Shown: piece by piece, positions 19,956 through 64,000 of the stretch | Layout: every line of letters begins with the position of its first letter | How positions within the stretch are numbered: the first letter of the stretch is position 1 | Assembly: GCA_002633005.1 (NCBI GenBank) | Contig: NMRA01000142.1 | Span: 310,001 to 374,000 of the forward strand | DNA length: 64,000 nt | Direction of reading: 5' to 3' | Source of the DNA: Phoronis australis | Lineage: Eukaryota > Animalia > Phoronida | Made by a program: the position numbers and the translations under genes | The notes under the pieces: model-generated | The model's database searches: none | What the model was told of the DNA's origin: nothing | The model's input: the letters and a program-made list of their open reading frames with translations, nothing else

Positions 19956-19995
<40 letters not shown>

Positions 19996-20207: not shown

Positions 20208-20357
20208 GTGAGTAAAATATAAGGTGATGTTCATGAAAAATGGACTGTTTATTAATTTGTATTTTTAAAATTGTCATCATTATTTGGTTGAATCTTGGCC
20301 ACAACTTTGATATTGTTTCTTTCGACCTTAATATAGTTAATGTTTAAACCTGTTACT

Positions 20358-20813: not shown

Positions 20814-20896
20814 TGTCGGAGATGCCTGTTTACTGATGCTGTTAACCCAGCTGTCCATCTTTGTGAAGAAAAGTGAGAGCTTCCTACAGATAGCAG
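20814..20896 (+). CDS. TERT: TERT TEN-domain (GQ motif) exon
   Basis: atttcag|T...GCAG|gtgcat. Translates VGDACLLMLLTQLSIFVKKSESFLQIA(G), which aligns by eye to human VGDDVLVHLLARCALFV...AYQVCG. Phase 2 in, phase 1 out. Confidence 0.87.
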
Positions 20897-21466
20897 GTGC
20901 ATTTGGAGGTTTGGTGGATATCATGTCTGTCGCATATGACATGTTCTAGTTCTATAGACAAGTTGTACTTTTCTGAGAAATGTATTTTAAAACTGCTATA
21001 TACTGCTGTTTTGCTGTCAAATACAAGTTTAAGCTCAGGGCTGGCACGTTTGGTCTTCCAAAGCCCCGTAATCCTTTGTTTGAATTAAAATTGATTACTA
21101 GTACAATAAAATGCTTGGAATTTTTATGAAGGCCCGTACTGCTTCACGGTAACAAGCAACTGTAGTGAACCTGATCTAAAAAAGTGAGGAATTGTCTGTT
21201 TTTGTCAAGTCTAAAAATCACTCCTATTACGAGTACAAAACAAGATGGAGATTGATTTTATTCCTCCCAGAATTCCCCGAGTACTACCATGAGACTGATT
21301 TTATAATGGCAAATGACCCATATCAAAAGTTAGTTTTTGACAGGAGTTAAGGTTTCATTTGAAAAGGATTTCAAAACTCATTACATGTTGCTTGGAATAA
21401 AGATGTGCTAATTTTTTTCTGACATTGTTGTTTTTTGAAAATCTAGAATGGATTACCCAATTGTAG

Positions 21467-22649: not shown

Positions 22650-23525
22650 GTGAGGCTTTGTTTTATTTTCACATATTAAATACTATTTTCATAAAATGTG
22701 TGCGAATGATGTATTCGTCTGTACACTTTGTTATGTTCATAATGCCATAATATGGAGGTAGTATGAGATTGCTGGAACCATGGCTCTAACCCACACAGAA
22801 CTGATGAACTTTTATGGTTAACTTGACATGCAGAGATAATAAAACCAATGAAGATGGATATAATGTATAATAACCACTGCTGACAGTAAAGTTACATTCA
22901 ACATTCCAGGCATTTTGGCCCTTTGTCCGTGGTCAAACATGTGGTATGAGACAAAGGCTGGCCATTAAAGAAAGTGAATTGTACACTAATTGATTAAAAC
23001 TCTCATACATGATGTGAATATTCCAAATAAAATATAGCCATCAAGATACTACTAAAACATAGCTTTAGGTAATAATGGTTAAAAATACAAATAATTTAAA
23101 AATGCTAAAAATTACATTTTAGTAACGGTAACATAAAAACACAATAACATGATGTTTTTTAGTAGTTATGTCTATCCATATTTTAAGTCTGCATAGCAGG
23201 ACTTACTAATTTCTGAATTCAGTTCTATGAAAACACTACATTTTTCAGATTCTGCATAATTATGCAGGCTCATACACATAAGTTACAACCATGTGATGAG
23301 CAGACGACCGCAATCCATGGTCATGTAGTGTGATCATTTTGACTGTGAGGCAAACACTCTGACTGTCAATCCACTTCTGTCTGTTCTGTTATTTACAATC
23401 TGTATATTATCAGTGCTGACCTGATTATGAAGAGTTTCTCTCTACCTCTTCCTCTTGTGTTGTTCATTTGTGTCAAGGTCTACTTGTGAACAGTTACTAT
23501 GTTCTACTGGCTGTTCAACTACTTT

Positions 23526-24810
23526 TCAATGTTCTTCTCCACACCCCTCTTGTTCATGGGAAGTCTGTTGCTGTCTTGACCTATTTATCCTTTCCTGTGT
23601 CTCTGTTGACTGTATACTTGATGGTGTGAGAATTGTTTGCTGTGCTCTTTGTCTTTGGGTCATTTGTGTCGTAGCTGTCATCTGACCAATAGCTTCTTCC
23701 ACAGTTTCCTCTTGTTTATGGGTGGCTAGTTGCATACTTGACAAAATTGCACTTTCCTTTGTCACTGCTGAGTGTATGGTAGAGGCACTGACTATTGTTC
23801 GCTTCGCTCTTTGTCTTTGAGTCATTTGTGTCGTAACTGCCATCTGACCAATAGCTTCTTCTCCACGCTCCTCATGTTCATGGGAAGCCTGTTGCTGACT
23901 TGACATACTTGTCCTATCCTTTGTCTCTGTTGTCTGTGAAATGGAGGCAGTGACCATTGTTCGATGTGCTGTTTGTCTTTGGTTCATTTGTGTCATAGCT
24001 GTCGTCTGACCAATAGCTTCTTCTGCACTTTCCTCTTGTTTAAAGGTGGCTAGTTGAAGTCTTGATGAAATTGCACTTTCCTTTGTTGCTGTTGAGTGTA
24101 CGGCAGAGGCAGTGACAATTCTTCTCTGTGCTCTTTGTCTTTGATTCATTTGTGTCATAACTGCCGTCTGACCAACGACCTCTTCTCTATGCTCCTCTTG
24201 TACATGTGAAGCCACTTGCCGACTTGACATGCTTGTCCTTTCCTGTGTCTCTGTTGACTGTATACTGGATGCTGTGACAATTGTTTGCTGTGCTCTTTGT
24301 CTTTGGGTAGTTTGTGTCATAGCTGTCATCTGACCAATAGCTTCTTCTGCACGTTCCTCTTGTTTATGGGTGGCTAGTTGCAGACTTGACGAAATTGCAC
24401 TTTCCTTTGTTGCTTTTGAGTGTACCTCAGAGGCAGTTACAATTGTTTGCTGTGCTCTTTGTCTTTGATTCATTTGTGTCATAACTGCCATCTGACCAAC
24501 AACCTCTTTTCCACGCTCATCTTGTTCATGGGAAGCCACTTGCCGACTTGGCATGCTTATCCTTTCCTTTGTCTCTGTTGACTGTATACTGGATGCTGTT
24601 ACAATTGTTTGCTGTGCTCTTTGTCTTTGGGTAATTTGTGTCATAGCTGCCATCTGACCAATAGCTTCTTCTGCACTTTCCTCTTGTTTATGGGTGGCTA
24701 GTTGCAGACTTGACAAAATTGCACTTTCTTTTGTTGCTTTTGCGTGTACAGTAGAGGCAGCAAATACAATTTGTTGTGCTTGTTGTCTGTGGTCCATTTG
24801 TGTCATGACT
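23526..24810 (-). repeat. Coding tandem repeat, 162 bp / 54 aa, about 8 units with A/B alternation
   Basis: Anchor TCTGACCAA recurs at 23681, 23843, 24005 and onward at 162-bp steps. Unit resembles GQMxAMTQxxQRQRAQQTIVTASxxxSxxTKE. Confidence 0.92.
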
Positions 24811-27800
24811 ACCATATGTCCATCAGGTGTTTCATTCGGTGAGGACCTCTCCATTAAATCTGTGCTATTGGAATCTCTTCTGATGTCTCGGTTGCTTGAT
24901 GAATGTGTTACCGATGATGTGTTCATCTTTGTAACAGCAGACCCTGTCTCAGTTTCATGGACCTTCTTGGCAGTGCTTGATATTGAGGAGATTGCGGTTG
25001 CCTGCTGAAACACCTCTGATCTCTGCACAGAAACATCTTGTTGTGGTGACTCATTGGTTTCTGTGGAGCTACTATGCTTGTGGATTTTACTAGAAGCCTC
25101 ACTGTCATGAACATCTTGTCTCAACTGCTGTGAAGTTTGTTCAAGTATAGTTTGATGTTCAACATTTTCCGTGTCTAATGCTTCGGAAGTTGCCAAGCTG
25201 TTCGTTGTGTGAGACTGTATATTGTGTTTTCTTAATTCTGATAGTTTTGAGGATTTGTAAGCTGTAATCTTTTCTGTTTTCTGACTGCTCTTTCTTGGTC
25301 CAGTAGAAAGACTTGTGCTGTCTTGTTCCATTATGTTAGAATTATGTTTCAAGTCATATTGACATTCCGTGTGTACCTCTGAAATATCATGCTTCATTGC
25401 ACTTTGAATTCTTACCGCTTTTTTAGTACTTAATTTATGGGTAAGTGTTGTTCCTTTAGTGTTGACGGAAGATACTACTGTTGGTGCTGTAGATGTTGCA
25501 AATGGAACCAATGATGATGTTGCCATATCGGTCTGTTTGATTTTTGACCTCTGTTGAAACACTTGTGACTGGGAGCTCGAGGCATATTTAGCTTCAGTAT
25601 AATATTTCAAGCGTTCGCTCCTGGACTGTGTAGACAGAGGTGATGTAGAGCTAGATGCAAGTGATACTTCTTGCTGAAGATTCTTCCACTCTACTCCCAT
25701 TTGAGCTTCTGAAGTATTGTCTGCGTTTTCTCTGGGAAAAGTTTCATTTACACCTGGTATGTGTCTTTCAGATTGCTCTTTTGTTCGTTTTTGGTCTTTA
25801 GAGGAGTCACTGGTCCCAGTACTTGTGTGGAAAGACCATGACACGAATGACTGCATTTGTTCTGTTTTGAAGGTCATGGAAGGAAGCCTGTACACAACTT
25901 TATTGACATTCTCTGATGTTGGTGATAATTTTTCTGCAACATCCTCATTTGTTTCAGGGTTCCTGTTTACACCCTGCTCCTCTCCAGCAGAAAACATTTG
26001 TGAAAAGCTGGTGCTTTGCTGGTTGTATCCTGCTTCCTGTTTCGCTTGTTCATCAGTAAAGATCGTCACTGTACCTTTTATGTCCACTCTCTGCCCCAAA
26101 GGTTCTTTTACGTTTACCACAGTGGTTGCATGGGCTATTTCATGCCAAGCACTTAGTTTATCAGTCAAAAGCACATTGTCTTCTTCCTCCCGTGTGTTGC
26201 CATTTTCTTCATCATCTTCCACTACCATGCCCTCTGCTCTACCTTTACCGGGTGATGTGTGCTCTGTTGTCACTAGTTGACAAACAGAATTTTGATCAGA
26301 ATCGCTCATATGAGTGTGCCCTTGATCACTTTCTATTGTATCTATGTTTTGGTTGCTCTCGGTTTCTATTTGTTTTTCAGTCACTTCCATGACCTCTGCA
26401 TCTTGCGGCCATGCTGTTGTTGCTAAGTTTGTTACCGGTTGAATCTCAGTTTGTATTGGTTCACCATAGTCAGCCTCTTTGTTCCTATTTTCATTAGGCT
26501 CATTAGATAGATGTTTATCAGGGGTATCAATGGCCTTTAAAGTTGTAGTGTAGTTGGGAAGGTGTTTTAGGGGATCCTGTATATTGCTTAATCTGTTTTC
26601 TTGTCCTTCGGGTATGATGGACAGCTCATCAACAGGCTTTAACACCACTGCAGTTTGATAAGTTTGTTGTACCTGCTTTTTACGTAAATGTACAGTCCTC
26701 TCTATTCGATCTGTTGTGGTGAATGGCTTTTCCACAATGCCTTGTGCATTTTCTGACAATAGTCCTTTGTCACAGGTAAGGTCTTCTAATGTGTCATTTG
26801 GTGTAGGCTGTAGACATGACGTACTTGGCGTGCTTTGCTCAAAGCCTTCTTCTGCTTCTTGTGTTCGTGTGTCAATGGTTTCAATCTTGGATGTAATACT
26901 TTGATCTTCTTCACAGATATTTATGGTCTTTTGGTGTTTTTCACTTTTCTGTCCAAGTTTGTCAAAACATATTTGCACATTTTTCAAGGCTGTTTCTGTT
27001 CTTTGAACATTCTTCTGTGCTCTTATGTGTTGTTCCTTAACAGCTCCTGGTGCTGTTTGTTCTGATTTGGTTGTTGTCATTTCTAGTTTGTTTATCTGAG
27101 GCTGGGTCATTCTGGGTTCAAACATAACTGGGCATTGATCTGTTGCAGCCATGTCTATTCTGTTGGTAGACTGAGACAATTCGCTCATGTTGTTGCTCAT
27201 GTTGTTGTTTTGGGGTGTTGGCGGGTCGATGTGAGACTTCTCATAATATTGTTCAGTTTCACTTTGGTGAGATTTCCTGAACATCCCTGTGTCCTGATTG
27301 ATCATAAATGCTTCATCATCCGCCATGATTGTTTCAGGCTCCCTGTTGGTGCTGTCACTAAGTTGACGTAGATGGCTCTGTATTCTACAAAATCTACTGT
27401 CTGTCTCTTCAAATGTGATGGTAGGCTCATAGGCAGGTGTTAACATCGCTGTTGATTTGTCCATTAGATACATTTGCTTTTCAATTTTCCCAGCTTGTTG
27501 CATTGCAATTCTTTGTTGGTCTTCCTCATTGGGAACTCTTGGTATTGAAAAGCTGCTGGTCCCAGCAGATTTAGAAGTGTCAACTGCTTCTTGTGAATGC
27601 ACCATACCATGCGTGATGTTGTCATGAACCTCGTCAGGGATTGGTGTTATTATACAAGTAGTTTCTCCACTTTGACTCACACCTGTAGATTGGTCTTTAC
27701 TCATCCTGTATTTGCCATAAGGTCCTTTGGGCTTCTGTGTAAATTCATCAAAATACACTTGCACGCATTGCATTGCAATCTGTGAACGCTGAACATTTTG

Positions 27801-30800
27801 TGTCGTTATGGTTTGTTCATCAACAGGGCTTTGCACTGTATCTTTGTGTTCTATTGAGCATTCCAGAATTGGCCTCTGAGACTGCACTGTAGTTTCTGAC
27901 AGGTTCTCAATAGTGTGATCATCAACATCAGTGGTTACTCCAGATACTGGAGTTTGTACTCCATTAATGTCACTACCATTGATAATTTGAACAGCTATAG
28001 GTGTTGTGTAGTGGACTGTTGACTGCTCATTCTCATTCTCATTCTTTTCATCAGCTATAACAGATAGTTCAGGGTCACCAAAGCATCTACTGGAACTTGT
28101 TCTGCCAGTGTTTAATGTAAAAATGGCACCATTCAAATCGAGTGTTTGTGCAGTCTCTGGACTGTATTTGGTTATAGGAACTCCATGCAACAGTGTTGAA
28201 GCCTCTGCATTCTCTTTTCTGGTTGTTGCAGGTTGGCCTTTAAGTCTTTCCACTGCCTGTTGGTCAACTGGACACTGGTCAGTGTCTCTTGCTGTGTCAT
28301 GTTGGTTTTGACTTTCTTCTGCTTCTGGTTTATCAAGGTCATCGGATTGGTCTGTTGGGGTTGCTGGCTCTAATATCTTGAAAGCTGTTTGGTCAAAAAA
28401 CTGCTGCAGTCGGTTCAGGTGGTCTTCTCTGCCTTCCTGTCTGATTTTTGTGATTGTTTCCTCACCAACAGGCTTCAACTCAATTATATGTGTTTCATGC
28501 ATTTCTTTTGGTTTGACATCAACGTCACTTTGGGCAGCATCCGTCTCTGCACTGCAGTTGGTTATAGGAAGTCCTTCACATGGCAGTGTTGCAGTCTCTG
28601 CATTCTCTTTTCTGGTTGTTGCACCTTGGCCTTTTAAGCTCTCCACTGGTTGTTGGTCAACTAGACAGGGGTCAGTTTCTCTTGTTGTGTGATATTGGTT
28701 TTGACTTTCTTCTGTTTCTGGTTTATCAAGGTCATCAGATTGGTCTGTTGGGGTTTCTGGCTCAAAGGCCTTGAAAGCTGTTTGGTCAAAAAACTGTTGC
28801 AGTCGGTTCTGGTGGTCTTCTCTGCCTTCATGTCTGATTTTTGTGATTGGTTCCTCACCAACAGGCTTCAACTCAATTATATGTGTTTCATGGACTTCTT
28901 TTGGTTTGCCATCACTGTCACTATCGGCAGCATCCGTCTCTGCACTGTAGTTGGTTATAGGAACTTCTTCTCGTGACAGTGTTGCAGTCTGTGCATTCTC
29001 TTTTCTGGTTGTTACTGCTTGGCCTTTTAAGCTTTCCACTGCTTGTTGGTCAACTAGACACTGGTCAATTTCTCTTGTTGTATAATAATGGTTTTGACTT
29101 TCTTCTGCTTCTGGTTTATCAAGGTCATCAGATTGGGCAGTTGAGGTTGCTGGCTCAAAGACCTTGAAAGCTGTTTGGTCAGAAAACTGCTGCAGTTGGA
29201 TCTGTTGCTCATGTTGTGTGCTTTCTTGCCTGTCTTTTGTGATTGCTTCCTCAGTGACAGGCTTCAACTCAGTTTTATGTTTTTCATACGCCTGTGCGAC
29301 ATTTGTATTGGCATCAGATGATCCTGTTAAGGTTGCTGGCTCAATGGTCTTTAAAGTTGTTTGGTCATAAAACTGCTGCAGTCTGTTCTGTTGGTCTTCT
29401 CTGCCTTCTGGTCTGATTTTTGTGATTGTTTCCTCTCCAACAGGCTTCAAACCAATTATATGTTTATCATGCACTTCTTCTGATTTGTCATCAACATCAC
29501 TATCAACGGCATTTGTCTCTGCACTGTAGTTGATTATAGGAACTCCTTCATGTGACAGTGTTACAGCCTCTGCATTCTCTTTTCTCGTTGTTGCACCTTG
29601 GCCTTTTAAGCTTTGCACTGCCCGTTGGTCAACTACACACTGGTCACTTTCTTTTACTGGGTCATATTTGTTTTGACTTTCCTCTGCTTCTTGTTTATCA
29701 GGGGCATCTGATTGGGCAGTTGGCGTTGCTGGCTCAAAGACCTTGAAAGCCGTTTGGTCAGAAAACTGCTGCAGTTGGATCTGTAGCTTATGTTGGGTGC
29801 TTTCTCGTCTGTCTTTTGTGATTGTTTCTTCAACGGCAGGCTTCAACTCAGTTTCATGTTTTTCATGTGCCTCAGCGTCACTTGTAGTGGTGTCAGATGA
29901 TCCGGGTAAGGTTGCTGGCTCAATGGTCTTTAAAGTTGTTTGGTCATAAAAGTGCTGCAGTCGGTTCTGGTAGTCTTCTCTGCCTTCCTGTCTGACTTTT
30001 GCGATTGTTTCTTCTCCAACAGGCTTGAACCCAATTATATGTTTATCATACACTTCTTCTGATTTGCCGTCAATGTCACTGTCAACAGCATCCGTCTCTG
30101 CACTGTAGTTGGTTATAGGAACTCCTTCACATGACAGTGCTACAGCTTCTGCATTCTCTTTTCTCGTTGTTGCACCTTGGCCTTTTAAGCTTTCCACTGC
30201 CCATTGGTCAACTATACACTGGTCAATTTCTTTTACTGGGTCATATTGGTTTTGACTTTCTTCTTCTTGTTTATCAGTTGCATCTGATGGTGCAGTTGGG
30301 GTCGCTGGCTCAAAGACTTTGAAAGCCGTTTGGTCAGAAAACTGCTGCAGTTGGATCTGCAGCTTATGTTGTGTGCTTTTTCGTCTGTCTTTTGTGATTT
30401 CTTCTTCAATGACAGGCTTCAACTCAGTTTTATGTTTTTCATACGCCTCTGCGTCATTTGCATTGGCGTCAGATGATCCGGGTAAGGTTGCTGGCTCAAT
30501 GGTCTTTAAAGTTGTTTGGTCATAAAAGTGCTGCAGTCGGTTCTGGTAGTCTTCTCTGCCTTCCTGTCTGACTTTTGTGATTGTTTCTTCTCCAACAGGC
30601 TTGAACCCAATTATATGTTTATCATGCACTTCTGATTTGCCGTCAATGTCACTGTTGACAGCATCCGTCTCTGCACTGTAGTTGGTTGTAGGAACTCCTT
30701 CACATGACAGTGTTACAGCCTCTGCATTCTCTGTTCTGGTTGTTACACCTTGGCCTTTTAAGCTTTCTTCTGCTTGTTGGTCAACTAGACACTGGTCAGT

Positions 30801-33800
30801 TTCTTTTGTTTTGTCATATTGGTTTTGACTTTCCTCTGTTTCTGATTTATCATGGACATTTGATTGGGCAGCTGGGGTTGCTGGCTCGAAGACCTTAAAA
30901 GCTGTTTGGTCAGAAAACTGCTGTACTTGGATGTGTAGCTTATGTTGTGTGCTTTCTCGCCTGTCTTTTGTGATTGTTTCTTCAACGGCAGGCTTCAACT
31001 CAGTTTCATGTTTTTCATGTGCCTCAGCGTCACTTGTAGTGGTGTCATATGACCCTGGTAAGGTTGCTGGCTCAATGGTCTTTAAAGTTGTTTCGTCAAA
31101 AAGCTGCTGCAGTCTGTTCTGGTGGTCTTCTCTGCCTTCCTGTCTGATTTTTGCAATTGTTTCCTCACCAACAGGCTTCAACTCAATTAAATGTTTTTCA
31201 TGGACTTCTTTTGATTTGTCATCAACGTCGCTGTTAGCAGCATTTGTAATGGAGTTCAGTATCACAGGTGAGATTCTGGGTTCAATTATCCTCAAATCTG
31301 TGTCATCGGTAAACTGAGGTAAGCGATTCTGTATTGTACTTAATTGTCTTCTTTCTAATCTTTCAGTTGCGATTGCCGCCTCAATGACAGGCTGCAATTC
31401 TGTTTTGTTAGTTTCGTGTACTTCATTTGGTTTCTCATCAAGATCACCATTGTCATCATTCTTGGTGGTGTCCAATGTGGTAGGTGTTGTTGTTGGTTCA
31501 ATGGTCTTAAAATCTGTATAGTCTGAAAACTGCTGTTCTTGGTTCTGTTGTCTGCTTTCCTGTATTTCACATGTCACTGTTGCTGCAACAACAGGTTCCA
31601 ATACTGTTTTGAGCTTTTCTTGGCCTTCTCTTGTTTTGTCATCAAGATCACCATCAGTCTCATTCTCAGTTGAGTCAGGCAGGGCAGGCATGGGTACTAA
31701 CTCTATGGCCTTCTGATCAGTTTGGTCAGAAAACTGCTGCAGTCGGTTCTGTAACTTTTGTTTTCTGCTTTCTTGTCTTTCTTTTGTGATTGTTGCCTCA
31801 TCAACGAGATTCAACTCAGTTTTATGTTGGTCTTGTTCTTCACTAGATTTCGGAACAAGATCACCATCAGCAGGTGCGACTGCTGGTTCATTGAATCTGA
31901 AATCTGTGCTGTCAGAAAGCAGTTGTAAGCGGTTCTGTTTCTTACAACTTTCAGTTGTGGTTAATGCCTCATCTATGGGCTTTGACCCTGCTTTATGTTT
32001 TTCACGTGCTTTAAGTGGTTTTTCACCAGGATCACCATCTGCATCATTCGTAGTGGTATCCAATGCAGCTTGTGTGATTGTTGGTTCAGTGATCTCATCT
32101 GAGTAGTCAGAAAGCCATTGTAGTTGGTTCTTCTTTCTCCTTTCTAGTCTTTCGTGTGTGATTGTTACCTCATCGACAGGTTTCAAGGTTGTTTTGTGCT
32201 TTTCATGTACTTCACTTGATTTGCCATTAAGGTCCCTATCAACATCATACATAGTGGTGTCTGGTGTAGTAGGTGAGTCTGTTGATTCATTGATCTTTAC
32301 AGTGGTATAGTCAGGAAACTGCTCTAGTTGGTTCTGTATCGTTTGCCGTCTGCTTTCTAATCGTTCACTTGTAATTATTGTTTCAACGACAGGTTTCACC
32401 TCTGTTTTACGTTTTTCATGTTCTTCACTTGATTTGCCTTCAAGATCATCATCATCATCGTCAACATCATTTGTAGTGATGTCAGATGTAGCAACTGTGA
32501 ATTCGGGTTTAATAATCATCAAATCTGTGTAATCAGGAAACTGATGTAGTCGAATTTGTGACCTACTTTCTAGTCCCTCACATGTGATTTTTGCCTCAAC
32601 ACGAGTTTTATGTTTTTCATCTTCTTTGCCTGATGTGCCATCAAGCTCACCATTAGCATCATTTGGAGTGGCATCACGTGATGCAGCTGCAGCTTCTGGA
32701 TCAGTGTCGTTCAAAGCTTTGTAGTCAGAAAGCTGCTGCATTTGCTTTTGCCTCTCATGTAATCTTCTTTCTAGTCTTTCGCTTGTTATTTTTGGTTCAT
32801 CGACAGGTTTTTGTGTTTCACATAATTCCTCTGAGTTGCCATTGCCATCCATTTGGGCTTGCTCTGGTACTCTTTGCACTGTGCTCTTTATGTTGGCAGT
32901 TGTAGTGACTGTGTTGTCGGCAGTATCTGAGGGAAACCAAATGCCATGTCTGCTTTCATCCGACGAGATGTTGGCTGGCACTTCAGTCTCAGCAGCACTA
33001 TGATGTAACTCCTTCATGTCTGGCATCATGTTCTCATGACTATCATGCATATGAATCTTAGAGGTACTATTTATCTCGTCAGCTTCTTCGGGTTTTGTTG
33101 TAATATGATCAAAATACAAAAATGCCCTTTTCAATGCACCAAATTCTCTTCTTTCAACATTGTCTTGTGCAGTTATGAATTGCTCATTCACTGGGGTTTG
33201 CACTAGGTATTGATCTTGGATTGTTGCTGTTTCCAATTCTTTCGTATATGATGGGATGTCTTTACTCGGTGCCTGTTGTTCAAAGATCTCATTGTCAGAT
33301 TCATCTCTGGATGTTGCGCTATCACTGGGCTTTACTTCTTTGGTCTCACCCTCTGAAATAGTTGGTTTGTTGACCTCTGTTTTCACATCCATTAAACTTT
33401 GCTGAATTGATACTTGATGATCGTAAGGTATATCTTGCAGCTCTGGTTCATGGCTATCTTCCATTTTACTCGCTGCTTCACTGCTTCTGGCATCTTTGAA
33501 CTCTTGACCTTCATCAAACAGTTCCGTATTAGACAATAAAGCCACGCTTGATAAATGTTTTTTAGGTTCCTCAGTGTCACTCATCCCACATTCTGTTGTT
33601 TTGTTCCTGTCATTCGGGTGGTCATCATTTAGTGCTTCATCACAGTCAGGCACTAGATGTGTTCTGGTAGTTTCTGGTTTATTTTCTTTCAGGGAAGAAT
33701 TTGTGTTAAGTATTTTTGTGGAGAGGTCATCGGTCAATTCTTCTTTTGCTTGTGGATTCCAACCTTCTTCTTTTAGTTTGCAAGTTTCTTCAACTGTGTT

Positions 33801-51800: not shown

Positions 51801-54800
51801 AAAACTTCACTGTGGCTGAAGTCAACTGTACCCATAGCATTTGAACTAATGTCGGACCTGCTACCATGCTGTGTTTTGGATATCTCTAAATATTCATCCA
51901 GACTGCCATGACCTGTACTAGCTTTGTCCATGTTAACCAAAATGTCTTCCTGGCTTTTGCCATTTTCTTCTTTGTCACTGGCATCATAACTTGGATTTTT
52001 ATTGGTATTTCTATCTTCTATTACAACTGTAAGTTTGTTGTCTTTTACAGTGTTCAAATCCTCTCGGTCACAAGGTGCTTTTTGCTCAATACGATCTTTC
52101 CCAGTTTCCACTTTGTTGTCTCTTTCTCTGTAACTGTCTTCAGCATCTGGGTGGACTTCGTCATTATCACTCTTTGCCTGCAAACCTGCTCCATCCTTGT
52201 TATCTTTTTTGCCGTTAATAGCATCCTCTGAATCTGTTTGAGGTTTGAAGTCTTTCTTACCTACTTGATCCATCTCCTCTGAAACACTTTCACATTGACA
52301 TTCATCGTTGGTATCATTGCCAGTGACCTCTGAACCATATGTATACACGTCATATGCCTCATATTTTTCAGTTGTCTCATTGCCCTTTTCAGACATCTCA
52401 TCAATTTCATATTTTTTATCATCAGTTTTTTCATGCCTGTCATCAGTTTCAGTGTAATCTTTTTCATCCTCTTTTGTATCTGTGTCCTGTTTTTCAGAAT
52501 ATTTTAACGCTTCTAGTTTTTGGCCTTCATCATCATTTTTATCACTGTCTTTTTCTACCTCAGTTGTGTCATCTTGGTGGATCACAGCAGCCTCTGTTTT
52601 TTCAAACAGTTCTGAATTTTCTGCGGTGTCATCTTTTGCCGTAGCTTCCACAATGTTTTCGCTGGTGTTATTGTCTTTGTCCATGGCGTCTGGGTACTTC
52701 TCCTGCTTGTTGTTGATATCTGCACTCATGTTATCAATATCTTTGTACCTAGTGCCAGCTTCTGCTTCAGTATCTTCTAAGTCTTCTTGGTCGATGGTAG
52801 CGTACAGCTCCAAATCTTCAACAGTCATGTTAACAACATCTTCTTTGACAGCAGCCTCCAAACCTTTCAGGAAGGTACCCTCTTCTTCGCATATTGTGTC
52901 ATTCTCAGCTTCTTTGTCAGTGGTTAATGAACTTTCTTGGCATATGGTATTATCCTTTTTGTCTTTGCACAATGCCTCTGAGTATTTTCCATCCTCAATT
53001 TTCTGAATGGAAGCATTGCTAGTGATCCCATCATTGTACATTTCATGTGAACATTCTCCGCTTTTGGTGGCATCTCCATCTTCACTGGCAATTGTAAAGT
53101 CTATTTTATGCACACTATCCTCATTATCTTTGTCCATGACCTCTGAGTACTTCTCTTGCTTTTTGTTGGTGGCATCTGTTGTGTTCTGAATGTGTGACAT
53201 TGTTTCAGACCTGATGCTTGTTTCTGATTCAGTGGCCTCTGTATCTTCTTGATAGATGAGAGCACACAGCTCCAAATCTTGAGCAGAGCCTTCATGACTG
53301 TCTTCAGGATATGGATCAGCTATGTCATTACCATCACTCTTTGCCTGCACACCTTCTCCATCGCTGATATTATTCTCCTTAACAGTGGCCTCTTGATCTA
53401 TTTCATGTTTGAGATCTTTCTTACCTCCTTCATCCATCTCTGAAGCACTTTTTTCTTCATTCTGGTTCACCTTGTCACCTTCTTTGTCAAAAGTTTTTGA
53501 ATCTTTTGTACAGAAGGAGTCATTATCATTGTTTTCTTCATTGTCCTCTGAATCTGCTTTGGTGACACTAATGTTGTCAAATTCTCTTTTGTTGTCATTT
53601 GAACCTTCTTGAAAGTTGACACTTTTGTCATCATTAACAACAGTCTCCTTGTCTTCATAGCTGTGGTCATTCTTGTCAGCTCTGTCAGCTACACACCTGT
53701 TGTCCTCCACAACTTCTTTTTCTGTGTTGCTTAACATCACACCAACATCGTCATCTTCATCTGCTGCATCCGAACATTCTTTGCTGTTGATACCATTCTT
53801 ATCCTCTTGATTCATGAAATCTAAAATTTCTTCCCTGTTATTACCTGTTTTATCCTTGTCTATATCATCTAAACTTTCATGGTGCGTTGTAACACTCTCT
53901 ACATTGTCTAAGGTAATAGCTTCTAAGTCGTCTTCCTCTATGGTATGCATGTTGTTATGTTTGTCCATATTCGTTGGATCGTCATTTTCTGTGGCAGTTA
54001 AACTTTTGTCTTTTTCTTGATCAGTTTTATCAAAAATTTCTTCATTGCTGGTAAGGCTTTGTTGAGCATTGTAACTTTCTTTGATTTCTGGGAGACCATT
54101 AACGTTATCAGCATCACCGTCTGCACTCTTAGAACTTGTGTCCTTTTTACTTGTATTATTTGAGTTGTCTTCATCATCTTCAATCAGGTTCGTAGCTCCA
54201 CCACTGCTATCTTCATCTCTGTTATATTTGATATCGGAACAGTCTTCATTACTGTTACTCATTCTGGTGTCCTTGTCCACAGCACCAGAACTTTGCGCAG
54301 TTGGGATGTCTTTCTCTTGGCAATCCTCATTGATAATTTTGTCCTGTCCATACTTTGCATTTTTATCTTCATTGACTGGAAGACCCTCTTGGGTGATGCT
54401 GTCATTCTTCTCTTTGTTTGTTAAGTCTAAATCTTTGGTTTGGGGAATATAAACTTCTTTTCCCTCAAATTCATTTTGCTTGGTGGTCCTATTTTCTTCT
54501 CTGCAGGTGTTGACCTCTGAATCACCATGGAAAATTGTGTCATCCCTGTCTTCTTTGTATATTGCCTCTGCGCCTGTTGCATGCCTAGCCTCATTCTGAT
54601 CAAAACTCATGTTAACAGGATCTGAACTCTCCTCATCCTTAGTCAACTTGACATCTTCAGTAGTGACATCGGAATATTCCTTGCTGCCATTGTTTTCAGG
54701 GTGGATACCCACCCTTTTAACTTCGTCATGCACACAGTTTTCAAGTGAATTGTCTTCTGACCTAATATTCACATTATCTTCAAGTTTGATATCTTCTGAG

Positions 54801-57800
54801 TCCTTTTTGCAGCTGGTGTCTTTTTCCTTGTCTTTGGTGATGCTCTGCACATCTGTTTCATATCTAGTGTCGTCATTTACTTTATCTGTCTCATGACTGC
54901 TTGCTGTTACATAACCTTGCACATCAATGGTATCATCATTGCCATCTTTTTCTGTTGCCTCTGAACTTTCTGGATACCTGGCATCATTGCTATCTTTTAC
55001 ATCAGATTCTTCCTTTTCTATGGATTTACTTTCATTGGTGCCAGTTGTTTCTAGGTGTTCTTCATTCTGGGTTTCGCTGTCATTGTTTCTATCGGCGATA
55101 TCTTCCTCCCTGCTATCATCAGCATCTTTGTCAACATGGTCAGACTGTCTTTGTCTGTAATCCACATCATCATTCTTGAAATCTGAACTCTCTTGACACT
55201 CTTCATTTTCTGCTTCATCCATGTCATTGACATGTACAACTTCTTGGTTCGTAGAATTGACTGCATTGTCAACTTGTGTTTTGCTAGTCTCCTCTAGATT
55301 TTTATCACTTTTATCACCGAGCTGGGATTTTTCTTGTCTGTTTGCATTATCAACTGTATCTATGTCTATTGAGGCTTCTTCTTGCAGGCAACTACTGTAT
55401 TCTTTCTCATCAGTGGTTTGCGTCTGTTCTGAGAACATTGCATCATTTTCTCCTTCGTTGTTGTCAACCTGTGAGTCATTTTCATGTCTGTTGTCATTAA
55501 TTTTGTCATTGTTAACTGAACTTGTCTTTCCATCTTTAGTAGTGTCCTCCAAAGCTTTTTCATACCTGTAGTTGCATGTGGTGTCTTCTTTGTTCACAAT
55601 TTCATTAATTTCTTCCATGTCTTCTTTTTCAGTAGTCTCTGAAGCCTCTTGGTCTTTTTCATATGTTGTACCAGTATCAATACTGTCATATTTTTTAGCT
55701 GGGGTGCTAAAAGCTCCTTCAAACTTGGGTTCATTTTGCACCTCTTGATTGATTGCCTCAGAGATGTTTTCATATGATAATGTTTTGCTTATGACCTTTG
55801 AACCATCTTCTTGCTTGCCTTCATTGTTCTCTTGAAGAGTTACCTGTTGACTGTTTGCAAAACTTCCAATAATCTGGATTTCAGTTCTAGTGGTCTCTAA
55901 CAGTGTTTCTTGTCTTGTAATTCCTTCTTTATTCAAACCTTCTGTATCCTGATATGTAAGATGAACATCATCTGTCTCACGCACCCCTGACAGTTCATTT
56001 GTAGCATCATTTGTATTATCTTGTGAAATTTCTTGTGTCGTAGTATTCACACATGTGTCTTTTACAATATGGCATTCTTTGTCTTCAGAAGAATCTGGTT
56101 TTTCTTCTTCCCTGATTTCATTTGTATCATTTTCAGTACTGATATCATCCTCATCTTCATTCCCGTTATCTTGATCACCAGGCCCAATTTCCGATTTATC
56201 TAGTCTTTGGGTATTTAATCTCAATTCCGCATCTGTCTTAATACCCTTGATTGTGGTATGAGAAGCTATATTCCAAATACCCTCTTCGTCTGTACCCGGT
56301 TCATGTTTGTTAACATTTCTGTTGTCTATATCACTGGTGTTTCCATTTCCTTCATCTTCAGAATTTTCGCTTGAGTCATCGCCCACATTTTTTAGTTTGG
56401 TCCCAAGACCTTCCTCACTTGTGGGATCTGCACTGGCATCTTCATCACTGTCCATCATTTTTGTATCTTTGCTTCTTTTGTAGTTCTTGATCTCTTTGTC
56501 AGTGACCTCTGGATCTTGTTCCTTTCTGGTATGATTGATTTTTGAATGTTCGGAGTTGTCTTGCGACTTGGCGTTATCTTTCAACGCTAAGGCTTCTAAG
56601 CCGTTTTCATCGCCATCCTTGTCAGAGCGTTGCTCCACTGAGTGTTCTTTACATGTGCTATCAATCTCATCATCTTCACCCTTGTCTTTCAAACTTTTTT
56701 TATGTTTCCAAAGTGTAGTTTCTTCAAATTGGATGTCATCATCTTTGTCTTTGATAACATTTTCCTTGTTTTTATCGTCTAAATCTTCTTTGAGATTGAT
56801 TGTCTCTTGACAGCCATCAGTTTCATAAGTGGTCTTAGAATCGTTATTGTATTTCAGTGTGTCACTCTTGTCTTGTTGGGTAGCAGGAACTCCTGTCTCG
56901 TCTTCATGTACAGTATCATCCAAGTTGTCATTGTCTTCTAGCATTGAATCTTTGTGTGTGGAAAGACCTTGTTCGTTGGTTGTTCTGTCATCTTTGTCAT
57001 TGGTTTCTTGGCTGTCATTGGATACTTTATTGTTTTTGTCTTGCCGTTCTGAATCCCTTTCTTGGCTTATTGCATTCTCATAGTCATTGTCTGCAGTTTC
57101 TAAACCTTTTTTCTGTGCTTCATTCTCATCAATTAGCTCATAGTTGATGAGCTCTGTACCTTGTTCGGTTCCCCTCTCATTGGATCTGTTGGTAGTTTCT
57201 GGAAATTCTTGCTTGCCATTTTCATTAGATTCTCCAGAATCACACCTTGTATCATCAGTCTCATTCTCCTTATCAATAGGCTCTTCATGTCTGGTGATGT
57301 CTTCTTCACCTCCATAAATTTTATCTGAATCTTCTTGGTGCGTTTTATGGTCCTCATTGTTTTCATCTTTAATGTTTGATCCTACTTTATACCTGGCAAT
57401 TTTTTCACCATCATGGGCAATGGTGTTTGAGCCTTTTTCCAATTGAATACTATCAACTTGATATTCAGCCTCTGAGACTTCTTCATAATTTGTTTTGTTG
57501 TTGTCTTCCTTGACTGTGCTGACTGTTTCTTCTTTAGGTCTGCTTGTAGTCTTTTCTTTGTCCAAGGTTCTTAAATCATCTTCACTGGTGCTATTTTCAT
57601 TTTTCTCCTGGATGATCTCCGTATCCTCTTGGTTCCTGGTATGGTTCTGTACCTTTTGATTTAAGTAATCTTCCTGTGACTTGTCGACGTCAGCCTCTTC
57701 ATCCATAAAGTCACATTTTTCACTGTCACCTTTCTTGTTTTTTGTGACTTCTGAACTGCCTTTGATCCTGATAACATTTTCATATTTCTCTGTAGTCTTT

Positions 57801-60800
57801 GGATCATTTTTGTCTGTGGTCTTTCTATCATCGTCAACTTTGTCAGCCTTTTTCAAGTCTTTGATCAACCATTTAGAATGTGGTACATTCTGGATTTTCT
57901 CATCAACTATGGGCACAATGTCAGATTTTTCATCTTGTGTGCTTTGTTGATCTCCTCTTTCTGTGACCTGTGAATCATCTGCATATGCGATATTGGCATA
58001 CTCTTCGGCAGTGTTTTCAGAACCTTCTTTGGCCTCAACCTCTGAATCTTCATGTGTCATGTCTTTACTGTAGTTCACATCAGATTCTTTTGAGATGTCT
58101 TCATACCAGATATGAGCATCACTATCTTCTTCCTTATCTTCTGCAATTTCTCCTATGGCTTTAGAACTTTCATTGCATCTGCTGTCATTTGTTGCATACT
58201 TGTCACTGGTCTGAGAACCTACACCCACTTTGTCAATTCCATCTTGTTTGCCTTTCACCTCCGAACTCTGGATGTCATTCATGTCACAAATTGTTGTGGG
58301 CTCTGAACCTTCATGCCAGTTAGAATTCTCATTAGATGTTTTCATACCATCTATCTTGTCTTCTTTCGTGGTATCACTTTGGTCTTCTGTGTGAGTAACT
58401 GCCAAGACTTCTTCGTATTTTGAAGTAATGTCCTTTTCATTGCCCTTAGCTTTAATTTCATCATCCTTTGTTCCAATATCTTGTTCTTTGTAAGCCTCTT
58501 TGTTGCCATTGTCTGAGACCACCAGTTCTGACTTAAGTGACGTATCATTCTCTTTTTCTGTGTCTGCAATCTCCGAGTCTTCTTCATCATGACAATGCTT
58601 GCCATCATATTGGCCTGTTGCCATTGAACCTTCTTCATCTTTGATGTTAATTTCTTGAATAGCCTTTGAGTCCTCTTGTCTGTAAATAATTTGATAATCT
58701 TTCACCATGGTTTCTCTATCTTCATTAGTCTTGTCATGTGCCATCAGATCTGAACCTCTTTCAGGGCTTGCGTTTTCGTCAACTTTGTCTACATCTACTG
58801 AATGATGTTCGTGCTCTTTTTCAGTCAACGGTGAATCATCTGCATATACAATATCTTTGTCAGATTTTAAATCTATGGTCTCTGAATCCTCTCGGCCTAC
58901 TGCAACTAGATGTCCTTGGGTGATGTCATCACAATATTCCATCACAACTGCCTCTGAACCCTCATGATACCAGGCTTCATGCTCATATTTGTATAGGACC
59001 TTTAAACCTTTTTCACTATCTTCCTCTGCCTCGGTACTTGCTATGTTTGAAGTTTCCTTGGAGCTGCTATCATTCTCTTGTTTTTTATTAGTCTGAGTAA
59101 CAGTATCTACATTGTCATTGCTATCAAGATCATCTTTCAGGTGAGATTTTGGTATTTTCCAAGTTTTGTTATCTTTCCAAGTGCCTTCATCACATGTTTC
59201 AGATTGCTCAGAACTTCTAAATGTACCGTGGCTCTCATTGTGATTGTCTTGAGTTTCAATGCTTTCTTCATTCATCGATTCATGTTCTACATCTTTGTCA
59301 GTGGTCTTCCAGGATTCTTCCTGCCTTGCAACATTCTCATTGAAATTTTCTTGGCCTTTATCAATATCATCATATTTAACGAGAACCTCTGCATGGTTTT
59401 GACTTTGAACATTTTCTTGATTTTGGTCCACTGTTTTGGGGCTAAGTTCATAACGGTTATCAGTCAAGTGAACTACATTCATGGTAACGGCATTTTCTTT
59501 TAACTTGGTAAGATTGTCTTGTTTTGTATCAATGGCCTTTAACGTATCTTCGTAGTTGCTGTTATTCTTTTCAAGTTGGGTCATTGATGTTGAAGGAGGT
59601 TCTAGATTGTTTGTTGTTAAGTGATCTTGGCTCACGGTTTCTAGGACTTCGTCAGCCGTGGTGTAATTTTTCATATCTGTATCAATCTGCTCTGAAGTAA
59701 TAGCACACCTTCTGCCGTCAGCTGCATCTGCATAGTCTAAGTCTTCTTCATGCATAGTATTAGTCTCTTGTTCGTTTTGTACAGTTCTCGTCTTTTCTTT
59801 GTGCAAATTATGGTCACTATACTCATTCTTCACTGATGCTAAACCTTCTTCATATTTGGCATCCGTTTCAGCAGGATTGTCTTTACCCATTGAGAGTTGT
59901 GTATCACGAACAAAGTCAGATCCCTTTGTGGCTACATCCTTTTCTGTCTTCTCTTCTTTGTCATTGCTATAGCCAAGCTCTGTATCATAGTCCAATTCTT
60001 GTGAATTTTGGTCATGACTGCTGTGACTGCTTTCATCTTGGTAATGGCTGTCACCCATGTCTTTTTCTTTGTTAGTTTCTGATGAACGTTCTTGACATGT
60101 GATATACTGATCATTTTCAATTGGATCTGAAATGTATGCGTAATTAATATCATCAACTGCTTTGTTGATGACTTCTGACCCTTCTTGTGCGGTATCATTG
60201 TCATACCCTGTATATTCTGGCTTTGCTTCAGAACTTTCATACTTGCCGTTTTCATGAGAGTTGTCTTTTTCAACTAGCTTGTCATAGCTGTTCTCATAAG
60301 CTTTGTTGATGTTGCGGAATCCATATTGGTGTGTGTTGTCTTTCTCATCATCTTTTCCCACTGCCTCTCCCAAATCATTGATGCACTTAGCTTCCGAGCT
60401 TAGCTTAATGCTGGCAACATTTCCTGTGTCTATGGCACTGATATCTGACTCTTTAAAGCAGGTGTCAGCATCAGAATTCTTTTTGATGATGTCTTTGGAG
60501 CTTCCAAGCCGAGAATCATTGTTGTCAGTTGTTTCTGTAACTATGAGGCTTTCCTCGTGCTTGATATTTGCGTTGTTATCTTCGTCTGTTGTTTCAGAGT
60601 TTTCTCCATCTTTGAAGTTGACCTTTGGAATCTGTCTGGCAATAGCATCACTCTCATCGTTGTCAGCATCTTCTGAACCAGTGTCATTCTTAGTGTCATT
60701 ATTGTGTGAGGCATCAAAGTCTTCTGCTAGTATGGTATCAATGTTGTTGTCTTTGTTCGTGGTTATTGACCATGCTTGTCCATACCAAGGTTCTTCTACA

Positions 60801-63800
60801 TTATACATGGTCACTGACCGTTGTTGATACATTGTGTTATTTTGTAGGCATTCGTTCTGCTTAATTTCAACATCAGTTTCTGTTTTGATGGTTTCTGACA
60901 ATTCTGGTTCATCCTTAGTTTCACGATCCTGCGTTTCATTCATGACATATGACTGTTCTTCATATCTTGTATCATTGTCGTCTTGATTGTCTTCAACAGT
61001 CTTAGCTTCTTCCAGTTTCATTTCCACCTTTGTTCCTGTATGTTGTTTAGCACCGTCATCATTTTCCCGTTTACCTTCATTTTTATCATGATCGGGCATT
61101 AGTTTGGTACATGCTTGTTCTGACTCATCAGTCTTTTTGAGTCTGTTTGTTTGTGCCACTAAGTCATTACTATTCATCAAATCATTTTTTCTTCCATTAT
61201 CAGTTTCCAGTTCAGTATAGTCTGCCTCTGTTGATGCTTCATCTGATACTTTAGCAACAGACTCTTTAATCTTGCTGTCCTCAGTATCTAGGAATGGTAG
61301 TTTATCATCTAGAAAAGCAGAGTCTGCTTTAAATATTTCTTGAACTACCTCATCCTCTAGGTGATGTTTATTTGGCTCGGGCACTATAGTTTCGTGCTCT
61401 GTTATGGTTAGTGGCAGGTGCTCTAGTTCTGTTTGTTGCAGATTGTCATGTTCAGTATGTAAAGTTATGAAGTCCTGCCGATTACGTTGGTCCTGGCTCC
61501 TATCAACTGATTGATAACTTTTTGCATCTGGCGGAATTTGTTTGTCATCATTATCCGATGGTGTTGATATTTTCTTGTCTTCTGTGGACCCAGTTGATGA
61601 TGATGCTTCATTGATACTTTTACTCTCTGGTTCTGATTCTGCCAACTGGTTGCTGGGTAACTGGTCGCTGATACTTGCTTGTAATGAAAAACTGTGTGCA
61701 GCTCCATCTACTTGAAACTGGTGTGGAGCATCACTTTTTGATGTTGATTCCACCTGCGCCGCATGGTCATGCTCTAACAATTGTTTATGATCATGCATAG
61801 TGTCTTCAGTTGACGTTGGTTCTTGAACTTTTTGTACGGTTTCCCTTTGGCTGTGGATAGAGTCTCCTGGTACAATTACACAAGTGTCTATCTCATCCTC
61901 GATTGCTTGCTCCATGCTACTGTCTTCCATTTCATGTTCGTGAAGTTCTTTCATATCGGTTTCCTTGGTGATACTTGGTTTCACTTCCACATGCTCTAAA
62001 GCGTCCTCCCTGTTAGATGTCTCTGCTGCACTTTTGCTACCTCCCTCTCTCAGTTGGTCACTACTAGTCATGTGATAGATAATTTCATCAGTTGTTTCTA
62101 TATCTAACCTTACACCATTGTTATCATTGCCATGGTTAGCTTCCCACACTTCAGCCAAAGACTCATTCTCATGTCTGACATTGTCTTGTGTCTTCAATTC
62201 ATGGTCTCCTAAATCTATGCTTTCATTTGTGGCATTACCTGTCTGTGCTGGAACACCGTCTGTTTCAGACTGTAATGATAGGCATGATGCTGCCTGTGAT
62301 GTCTCTGTTACCATTGGTCGTTTGTCCATGGATTTGTCGTCATTTGTTGGTCGATGAAGTACTGGCACTGTACTAAGCATCGTTCCTTGTTCAGGCAGTA
62401 AGTCACACCTGTTTACAGATTCAAGTCTAATTGATGGTATTGTGGACCATACAGAGATTTCACTTGGTATCTGCATTTTGTCATCTGTAGTACTTTTTGT
62501 GGGCGTGATTCCTTTGCGATTAATCTGTGGTTCTTCAAGAATTATCTCATGTTGCATTGACTGAATGTATAGGTCTTCCTTCGAGTTAACTGAGACATCT
62601 TGGGTTTCACTTGTGCCTCTTATGCCCATGGTCTTGTTCTTGGTTTTTTGTTCAGCTTCATTTGTTTCCTGAGCTGTAGTGCTGATGTTTTTACCAAAGT
62701 GTAATTGGATAAGCTCTTTCTCATCTGTAAGTACCATAGTTCGAGCTCTGCTTTCGTCTTTCCATGGACTATCCACAGATGTCAGTGTACTTCTAGCCTC
62801 TGATCCATGCATTCTTGTTTGGATCCTCTCATTCATTTGCATACTGTCAAATATGTATTTTGTTCTTCTCTTTGCTATAGTGTGTAGATTCTCCTTGGTT
62901 TCTTTGACAACAAGAGGCTCGTCAACGCATGCGTCATCTTCTGCTGTAACATTTAACTTCTCCCTGTCTTGAGCTTCTTGCCAATCAGTTCCAGTGATTA
63001 TTTGGTTGTCTATTCTGTCCACTGGTTGTTGTCTGTTTGATACAGTTTCGTGGTCTATGTAATTGCTTGTCAGCTGCTTGTCACTTATATCTGTTGTCAT
63101 CAATTGGGCTGCTGGTGTTCTTTCTGGAGGAAGAATTTGGAATAAATCATTTAATGTCTGTGTTGGCCTTGTTATAATGACAGCAGCTACATGTGGTTCA
63201 TCAACAGCTTGTTCGGCAACCCCGTCAACTTTGATGAAACGTAAACTGACTTCTTTTCTTGTTACCACATCACTTCTGTCCTTATCTAGTGACTCCAGTG
63301 ACAATTTCTTCACTGGTGTTGTTTCTTTGTCAGTCCGTTGAAGAGGGCTTTGCTCATTCATAACTTCTTGACAGTTACCAATCTTCCTGACCCGATTGTC
63401 ATCGTCACTTTCCTGATTGTTTTGTCTGACTGTTTCATTCCTTGCACGTGGACCTAATTCTTGAATTATGTCATGTGTGATTGAATAGTTTATATCAACC
63501 GCTGCCTCTTCAGTTTCAAACTTTGTTGGATGTGCTTCTTCTCTTGAATTTTTTTCATGATCTTCTTCCTGTGGTTCTTGTGATACTTCGTTTTCTGACT
63601 CCGGGGTTGGTGTTTTAGACAGAATTTCCAAGTCCGTTATCAGCTGCTCATAGCTCTGACTTATTTTTGTTGTCTGACCTAAGCTTCCTTTTGGAACCAT
63701 TCTTTCCTCTAGTTCTAGACTCAGATCTTTTATGTCCAATGGGCTTTTGTCTTTCCAACATAATTTTGTGTACGGTACAGTCTGACTGCTCAACTGTATT

Positions 63801-64000
63801 TTGTGGAGCTGAGTTGATGTTGCTTGCGGAAGCGAACTGTCTGATTCACGTCGTGGTCGATCTCCATTCACTTCAGGAGGACGTTTGATGTCGGGGATGG
63901 CGTCTAAACTTCTGTGACCTCTGTGCTTTTTATGCAAAGGTTCCAGCATGTATTTTACAGTTGTTGATGTAGAAGAAACCCCACCGTCATCTGTCTGTTG
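23526..64000 (-). CDS. Giant intronless ORF / terminal exon encoding at least 13,080 aa of acidic, repeat-rich, probably intrinsically disordered protein (5'-incomplete)
   Basis: The 9993-aa ORF (33968-63949) and the 3492-aa ORF (23526-34004) join in frame once the 1232-nt duplicate at the N join (34047-35278) is removed. The frame is still open to 64000 (QQTDDGGVSSTSTTVKY precedes the listed Met). Composition is dominated by D/E/T/S/N/K/Q. Indels seen between internal repeat copies preserve the frame. No folded domain or transmembrane segment was recognised. Confidence 0.9.
28130..31250 (-). repeat. Coding tandem repeat, ~576-579 bp / ~193 aa (four full and two internally deleted units)
   Basis: Shadow ORFs recur at 29164, 29743 and 30319. 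Protein unit KPVGEETIxKxRQEGRED..NRLQ.F.DQTTLKTIEPATL...QLQQFSDQTAFKVFEPATP...ESLKGQGATTRKENAEAVTLS. Confidence 0.92.
32813..35278. other. Probable assembly artefact: overlapping contig ends (two haplotypes) joined by a single N
   Basis: 32813-34046 (1234 bp) and 34048-35278 (1231 bp) are near-identical, differ by scattered SNPs and one 3-bp indel, and directly abut the lone N at 34047. Confidence 0.88.
40700..53500 (-). repeat. Coding tandem repeat, ~1.62-1.64 kb / ~545 aa; three near-identical central units plus diverged or truncated flanking units
   Basis: Anchor encoding (Q)HGSR near 45328, 46945, 48580, 50218 and 51859 (spacing 1617-1641 bp), with a diverged copy near 42260. Outer boundaries are approximate. 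Confidence 0.9.

Follow-up and report, generated by a model that had tools for sequence, protein, structure and literature searches.

A window of 64,000 nucleotides (nt) from the phoronid Phoronis australis (assembly GCA_002633005.1, contig NMRA01000142.1, positions 310,001 to 374,000; numbered here from its first letter) has on its minus strand a reading frame of 13,080 or more codons without a stop. This giant frame, as it is called here, likely corresponds to the last exon, in one piece, of a lineage-specific gene. The comparison of its internal copies supports selection for translation, and translation over the whole length of the frame is very likely. For the locus as a whole we tentatively prefer, at somewhat less than even confidence, the explanation that this last exon is likely nested in the gene for telomerase reverse transcriptase (TERT) and that its product is a disordered, acidic tether.

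Extent and Integrity of the Giant Frame

The longest stop-free stretches of the minus strand lie at 33971-64000 (30,030 nt) and 23529-34052 (10,524 nt) in two different frames, and all remaining frames of the window have stop-free stretches of at most 1,212 nt. The reading frame switches at a single unspecified base (N) at 34047, which is flanked by near-identical copies (32813-34046 and 34048-35278, the join as a whole covering 32813-35278). Of 1,231 aligned bases 1,209 are identical (98%), there is one 3-nt indel, and the differences comprise 8 synonymous and 14 nonsynonymous changes and no stop. This duplication of about 1.23 kb is likely an uncollapsed assembly overlap representing two haplotypes of one stretch. 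With the overlap counted once, the giant frame comprises 39,240 or 39,243 nt depending on the copy kept, the latter being the length proposed in the initial annotation of this DNA, and its sole stop is the terminal TGA at 23526-23528. As that annotation had also stated, the frame is still open at the window edge at 64000, and all sizes given here are minima. Its 5' part (34048-64000) holds 9,984 codons, and its 3' part (23526-32812) ends at the TGA. From position-specific base use 437 stops would be expected in the frame (probability of finding none about 1e-193), and the two other minus-strand frames contain 563 and 1,766 stops over the same span.

N runs occur at three places in the window (728-869, 15675-15691 and 34047), and 15692-34046 is free of any N, so that a spliced plus-strand gene, described below, and the giant frame are contiguous there. 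In the stretches tested to both sides of the join, exact repeats reach at most 220 nt, and the repeats of the giant frame are therefore not regarded as assembly copies; their copy number could still be off. Single huge open reading frames (ORFs) occur in some RNA viruses and bacteria, and an assembly join does lie inside this frame. That the frame stems from an integrated virus, from contamination or from faulty assembly is nevertheless extremely improbable in view of the N-free continuity with a spliced gene, the shortness of the exact repeats, a CpG depletion that is continuous with the neighboring gene, and the lack of any Pfam stretch, PHROG family or relative in viral or metagenome contigs.

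The giant frame is regarded as a last exon because it carries the terminal stop and because no candidate for a minus-strand coding exon was identified between this stop and a lipocalin gene at 9009-11741 in the ORF list, which was partly scanned. That the span is one exon we infer from the DNA rather than from reads.

Selection on the Reading Frame

Selection was analyzed in 13 frame-blind DNA alignments of the join copies and of neighboring repeat copies, the pairs being non-independent. In these alignments 36 of 40 gaps were divisible by three, whereas in a non-coding duplicate elsewhere in the window, used as control, this was the case for 2 of 24. The other four gaps form two adjacent compensating pairs (2+1 and 2+4), in which the frame is regained within 2-3 columns. 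The earlier claim that all indels are multiples of three is hence true in net effect and not literally, and the selection on translation derived from it is corroborated. Moreover, no stop was found between diverged repeat copies as compared to about 100 expected at the synonymous rate (summed over the 13 non-independent pairs). The ratio of nonsynonymous to synonymous divergence (dN/dS) ranged from 0.42 to 1.48 and was below 0.8 in 10 of the 13 pairs. Amino-acid constraint is thus weak or nil, while the reading frame is guarded.

Two considerations temper the argument from selection. Neither transition bias nor CpG bias enters the dN/dS count, so that values of 0.6-0.7 may mean neutrality, and decay triggered by a long 3' untranslated region could be an alternative purger of stops.

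Expression and Splicing

RNA data bearing the same species label, namely three stranded raw runs, of each of which 18-19% was read, and one contig set (X1 to X4), were mapped on 15730-34046. In the stranded runs the spliced reads of the plus-strand gene are first-mate-minus. First-mate-plus depth, which stands for minus-strand RNA, was detected inside the giant frame, in its 3' part, in 6 of 17 bins for X1 and 4 of 17 for X2, as compared to opposite-strand depth in 1 of 17 bins in X2 only; converted from depth and including the bin straddling the stop, this corresponds to about 9 minus-strand pairs versus 1 plus-strand pair. This pattern fits rare transcription of the correct strand and is uninformative on continuity.

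Two findings count here against the preferred explanation. Expression is barely seen, the giant frame being covered in none of the 17 bins in X3 and X4 and no RNA data set being listed as matching 54001-64000, and 37 TTTYAG acceptor-like and 61 donor-like sites occur in its sense strand, which makes internal in-frame splicing possible. The span may accordingly consist of several exons, with large in-frame pieces such as repeat units spliced out and a usual protein that is much shorter; the read depth is too low to reveal joints, and the repeat units are multiples of three. Two observations make this distinctly unlikely: stops and frameshifts are absent throughout, which implies that every part is translated in some isoform, and pyrimidine-rich acceptors are rarer in the sense strand of the giant frame (0.42 per kb) than in the flanking DNA (2.3-3.6 per kb).

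Composition and Repeats of the Predicted Protein

The predicted protein has 13,079 amino acids (aa), a mass of 1.47 MDa, an isoelectric point (pI) of 4.4 and a net charge of -1,687. Glu (12.4%), Asp (11.6%), Thr (9.6%), Ser (8.5%) and Lys (7.9%) are abundant and Pro makes up 2.5%; Asp and Glu together amount to 24%, Ser and Thr to 18% and hydrophobic residues to 24%, and 142 Cys are scattered over the sequence. A FoldIndex-type score was negative in all 27 blocks of 500 aa, and no transmembrane stretch was detected, no hydrophobic 19-mer scoring above 0.98. These values agree with the megadalton-scale, strongly acidic and mostly disordered protein that had been proposed earlier.

Read from the edge of the window, the visible part of the protein begins with some 900 mildly acidic residues and continues with some 2,600 that are strongly acidic and unique; next come a block of 545-aa units, a second unique acidic stretch, 45-aa repeats and C-terminal 54-aa repeats. 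Asp and Glu account for 18-29% per 500 aa in the 5' part, of which the first 500 aa are the least acidic, and the net charge is near zero over the last 1,500 aa. Five tandem units of roughly 545 aa (1.63 kb) each lie at 44267-52483 on the minus strand with a synonymous divergence (dS) of 0.06-0.36 between neighbors, and older, decayed copies extend over about 41300-53450. The 45-aa motif (26505-32837, minus strand) occurs in 20 copies, some of them grouped into higher-order units of 130 and 193 aa, and its core is predicted as one alpha-helix. The 54-aa unit at the C-terminus (23529-24825, minus strand) is present in 7.5 copies with a 108-aa higher order; it is neutral, rich in Gln, Thr, Ser and Ala, and predicted to be helical.

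AlphaFold supplied with self-alignments modelled the 45-aa motif as one helix at 17-47 (mean predicted local distance difference test score, pLDDT, 75; predicted template modelling score, pTM, 0.35). A pair of 54-aa units was modelled as one long helix, with a mean pLDDT of 70.6 and a pTM of 0.28 in the best model and pLDDT values of 45-55 in the other four. The models thus suggest helical propensity in both repeats and no globular or compact fold. These helical repeats are restricted to the C-terminal quarter of the protein.

Several features count against an intracellular tether. AlphaFold helices obtained from 7-20 self-repeats are weak evidence, and two site counts lean to secretion: N-glycosylation sequons number 181 overall as compared to 154.5 ± 10.6 expected (reached in 0 of 200 shuffles), with 75 versus 52 expected in the 545-aa repeats, and S-x-E sites are in marginal excess (153 versus 137 expected, 15 of 200 shuffles). 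The protein may hence be a secreted polyanion, glycosylated or phosphorylated, of a matrix, an adhesive, an egg coat or a biomineral, with its signal peptide beyond the window. Its content of Asp and Glu and of Ser and Thr as well as its pI would suit this role, the low RNA level in three runs would suit a gland-specific gene, and the very long coding exons of the spider gene AgSp1 encode a secreted protein (PMC6553539). However, sequons are at chance level in the two unique regions tested (50 versus 46 and 33 versus 34), Lys and hydrophobic residues make up a mixed sequence rather than simple Asp runs, the low Pro content leaves no mucin domain of the Pro-Thr-Ser type, and the C-terminus lacks a Cys-rich or other Pfam domain. 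On balance we consider secretion rather unlikely, and an intracellular location is modestly favored. Sites for PKA, CK2 and proline-directed (SP/TP) phosphorylation were at chance level. The short linear motifs SxIP (5), W-type LIR (4) and RVxF (3) were counted without a control and are given no weight.

Relatives and Comparable Proteins

The giant, disordered exon is likely lineage-specific, and no relative of its protein was detected. Pfam matched no family on any single stretch, in agreement with the initial statement that no folded domain is visible. Residues 1-1000 had no relatives among proteins of 5,491-17,472 aa, and a comparison of residues 1-1200 with 1.84 billion representatives yielded none either. 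The last 1,000 aa gave no usable match in the Atlas, and the protein had no relative among metagenome and viral contigs and no family in PHROGs. Searched against the PDB, the 45-aa motif profile reached a best E value of 0.55 with unrelated chains, and the 54-aa profile gave nothing better than 2.3.

Several candidate assignments were rejected. The Pfam rows TOBE_2, DUF4320 and Lgt1_N had no passing stretch, their scores being summed over repeats. With its helix followed by LKxI, the 45-aa motif is reminiscent of WH2 and beta-thymosin; an assignment to either is not supported, as 0 of 20 copies matched them in Pfam at E values up to 10. A giant of the titin, connectin or obscurin type would carry, on the flanks of a PEVK-type spring, Ig, Fn3 or kinase domains, none of which occurs in the roughly 13,080 aa up to the stop, and Pro is low at 2.5%. 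A gel-forming, VWF-like mucin, which would have a domain rich in Pro, Thr and Ser and a Cys-rich C-terminus of the VWD, VWC or cystine-knot kind, is not supported by 18% Ser and Thr, 2.5% Pro, scattered Cys and a C-terminus without a Pfam domain. A viral polyprotein is not supported either, no polymerase, helicase, protease or capsid domain having been found.

Long exons of giant ankyrins, proposed as molecular spacers, are similar in that they form very long single ORFs, are rich in Glu, Asp, Ser, Thr and Lys, hold repeat arrays and lack homology across phyla; the largest one listed is Drosophila Ank2-XL with 27,804 bp (PMC5135030). The giant frame likewise ranks among the longest ORFs and contains three repeat families, a feature that is not specific. 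The giant protein is proposed to act in a manner comparable to these spacers. The giant frame differs in that its length is 1.4 times or more that of the largest listed exon, that it encodes a protein poor in Pro and rich in Asp and Asn, and that it likely lies nested in a TERT-like gene. No ankyrin-repeat, ZU5-ZU5-UPA or death domain was detected in the Pfam scan of the part of the protein within the window.

The giant frame could itself be the long exon of the animal's giant ankyrin, lying downstream of the death domain and organizing axonal membrane and microtubules. In favor of this, such exons are among the longest ORFs, often with repeat arrays and with homology lost between phyla (PMC5135030), and the composition is close, Ser and Glu reaching 20.9% and the six residues Ser, Glu, Thr, Asp and Lys together with Pro 52.5%. 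Both values are nonetheless below the averages given there (about 25% and more than 55%), Pro is at 2.5%, and the listed exons measure 8.1 ± 4.9 kb on average and 2.1-7.5 kb in echinoderms (PMC5135030). Furthermore, an entire multi-exon ankyrin gene would need to sit in or overlap the TERT-like gene, and the read depth is lower than that of the TERT-like gene, so that this identity appears improbable.

With 42,270 bp that a 6.7-kb intron divides into two similar exons (PMC6553539), the spider aggregate spidroin AgSp1 resembles the giant frame in being an invertebrate coding sequence that is repetitive and about 40 kb long. AgSp1 is secreted and has a spidroin terminal domain, whereas the giant frame is unbroken over at least 39 kb and mostly non-repetitive or made of old repeats. 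Among the coding exons described in animals, the giant frame would be one of the longest without interruption, exceeding the listed giant-ankyrin exons and the AgSp1 exons. A literature search, which covered mostly titles and the beginnings of abstracts, returned no longer animal exon and no gene nested in TERT. Annotation based on homology overlooks exons of this kind, and joins in the assembly break them, as at 34047.

A TERT-Like Gene on the Opposite Strand

Six plus-strand exons precede the region of the giant frame and chain to 551 stop-free codons, all with GT-AG borders and matching phases. Exon 1 (16241-16329) has the ATG start and a GT donor whose phase 2 matches the next exon; exon 2 (17272-17389) has GT-AG ends; the GQ motif begins in exon 3 (18499-18561) with Gly87; exon 4 (20089-20207) again has GT-AG ends; exon 5 (20814-20896) holds the VGD...Q core of the GQ motif with Gln155; and exon 6 (21467-22649) contains the end of this motif and a linker of about 390 aa and ends at a phase-2 donor (gtgaggc). 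Splicing of exon 5 to exon 6 (20896 to 21467) was seen in 4 reads of run X1.

Compared by eye with the consensus shown in PMC5405514, the GQ motif in exons 3-6 is identical in 19 of 83 columns with one gap, and in 14 of 38 in its last part. The spacing between the conserved Gly and Gln is 68 here as compared to 69 for human G100/Q169 (PMC2943602). The linker after the TEN region is of low complexity and without a Pfam family, as is described for TERT (PMC2943602; PMC5405514). This match by eye indicates that the plus-strand gene is likely TERT, represented by its TEN/GQ domain and linker. It resembles the TERT N-terminus in the GQ pattern and spacing and in the long low-complexity linker that follows, but differs in that its TEN region is split over six exons and that the window lacks the CP, QFP, T and RT motifs. 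The initial annotation, sound on coding capacity, size and acidity, had missed this neighbor as well as the C-terminal helical repeats and the weak amino-acid constraint.

None of the tested TERT motifs, T and RT included, was found on the plus strand between 22600 and 64000, and the donor at 22649 is only 876 nt away from the stop of the giant frame, a distance too short for the RNA-binding and RT domains. Since the later motifs are not in the window and 876 nt are too few for them, the giant frame would lie in a TERT intron of more than 41 kb, and its antisense nesting in an intron of an intact TERT is probable. Pairs made up of a host gene and a nested gene are common in mammals, where over a tenth of genes are hosts (PMC11694760). 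The present arrangement is alike in placing one gene within the long intron of another; in this case TERT would act as host to a guest coding exon of at least 39 kb. If the nesting holds, a giant, tissue-restricted antisense transcript would be tied to the telomerase gene, and transcriptional interference on TERT could be tested directly in an invertebrate.

The nesting has to be set against several observations. Automated searches with single-exon pieces of 21-67 aa gave no TERT match, the remaining five TERT-like introns are only 570-1,527 nt long, and no read splices exon 6 across the giant frame in the mapped region. Moreover, TERT-like exon 1 has a decayed copy (6041-6124) that carries a stop and a deletion, so that partial TERT copies exist here. 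The plus-strand gene might hence be a 3'-truncated TERT copy, consisting of TEN and linker and arranged tail to tail with the giant gene, an alternative that concerns the setting only and fits any function. Such a copy would end at the TGA at 22651-22653, which follows the donor immediately and in frame if this remains unspliced, and plus-strand AATAAA hexamers lie at 22838 and 23026. In addition, a decayed duplicate of the 5' region exists at 4777-6666, no splice partner of the donor at 22649 was found within the window, and no joint from it is listed in the RNA data. On the other hand, exon 6 ends at a near-consensus donor and the six exons are intact and spliced. The depth in bin 22451-23061 (1.5 in X1) does not exceed that which 6 reads at 22453-22557 would give if coverage ended at 22650, and one plus-strand read pair maps to 23673-24283. 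Truncation is therefore doubtful, and the probable setting remains an intron of an intact TERT.

On the minus strand, the sole AATAAA/ATTAAA hexamer between 22650 and the stop of the giant frame, a putative poly(A) signal, lies at 22662-22667. This only canonical hexamer of the giant gene is located 13 nt from the TERT-like donor and inside the putative TERT intron, so that the 3' end of the giant gene would abut the donor.

Inside a methylated gene body CpG depletion is the expected pattern. The observed/expected ratio of CpG was 0.92 in 1-13000 and 0.64 across the TERT-like gene, counting both exons and introns; from 22650 to 64000 it was 0.24-0.33, with 0.29-0.32 across codon boundaries. 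Such a gene body could be that of either the TERT-like or the giant gene.

Proposed Role of the Giant Protein

A stop in a last exon yields a shortened protein rather than junction-dependent decay, and stops in this exon would thus only shorten its product. Their removal along all 39 kb therefore implies that the far C-terminus must remain joined to the N-terminus, and the near-free drift of the amino acids that length and charge, not sequence, would be what the roughly 10,000 acidic residues supply. Following this, we propose that the C-terminal helical repeats (20 × 45 aa and 7.5 × 54 aa) would form a multivalent anchor, that the N-terminus beyond the window may provide the second anchor, and that the chain between them would act as a self-repelling, polyanionic spacer. 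By per-residue length and chain scaling, this spacer would measure about 5 micrometers when stretched and have a radius of gyration of about 56 nm when relaxed. Its most likely location would be intracellular, on a scaffold of the cytoskeleton or the cell cortex in a restricted tissue, and we rate an intracellular tether at an even chance or marginally better.

Long charged, disordered chains set on a binding region and working by length and charge are known from the acidic projections or side arms of MAP1/Futsch, MAP2 and neurofilaments and from the PEVK region of titin. In contrast to these, the giant protein is several times longer, no flanking conserved domain was found, and its anchors would be novel repeats. 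The locus would offer an unusually clear example of a frame, a length and a charge kept by selection despite a drifting amino-acid sequence. More speculatively, and with low confidence, the giant gene may be a young, lineage-specific gene with one coding exon of at least 40 kb, enlarged through the expansion of repeats while lying within a telomerase-gene intron. Its product would be an orphan polyanion of at least 1.5 MDa whose new helical repeats mark an unknown class of micrometer-scale tether, and in expressing cells TERT output would be gated by transcription of the giant gene. If this were true, every TERT transcript would have to cross an antisense gene many times longer than the other introns.

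Other Features of the Window

The 5' region of the TERT-like gene (15018-17143) has an older duplicate about 10.2 kb upstream (4777-6666), 73-90% identical in four blocks, in which copies of the later TERT-like exons were not found. Along the window CpG follows a sharp mosaic, with ratios of 0.8-1.1 over 1-12000, a decrease through the TERT-like gene and 0.2-0.4 from 22000 on. Taken by themselves, mosaic CpG depletion and an intron-rich TERT with a GQ motif would suit a non-vertebrate deuterostome (PMC5405514), without being proof of one. The lipocalin gene mentioned above is Apolipoprotein D-like (9009-9278, minus strand, with a probable first exon at about 11550-11720, minus strand; Pfam Lipocalin E value 1.5e-13, best identities 50-51%) and is oriented away from the TERT-like gene. 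A GIY-YIG endonuclease fragment at 14254-14619 on the plus strand (E value 1.2e-05), about 1.6 kb upstream of the TERT-like start and flanked by a short repeated stretch near 14135-14270, is likely the remnant of a Penelope-like retroelement. Intron 3 of the TERT-like gene contains a stop-free stretch of 128 codons (19369-19755, minus strand) and plus-strand open stretches of 55-62 codons, possibly a piece of a mobile element. Additionally, short interspersed repeats in the TERT-like introns (19174-19206, 20359-20579 and 21255-21296) draw many partly fitting RNA reads that stem from other parts of the transcriptome.

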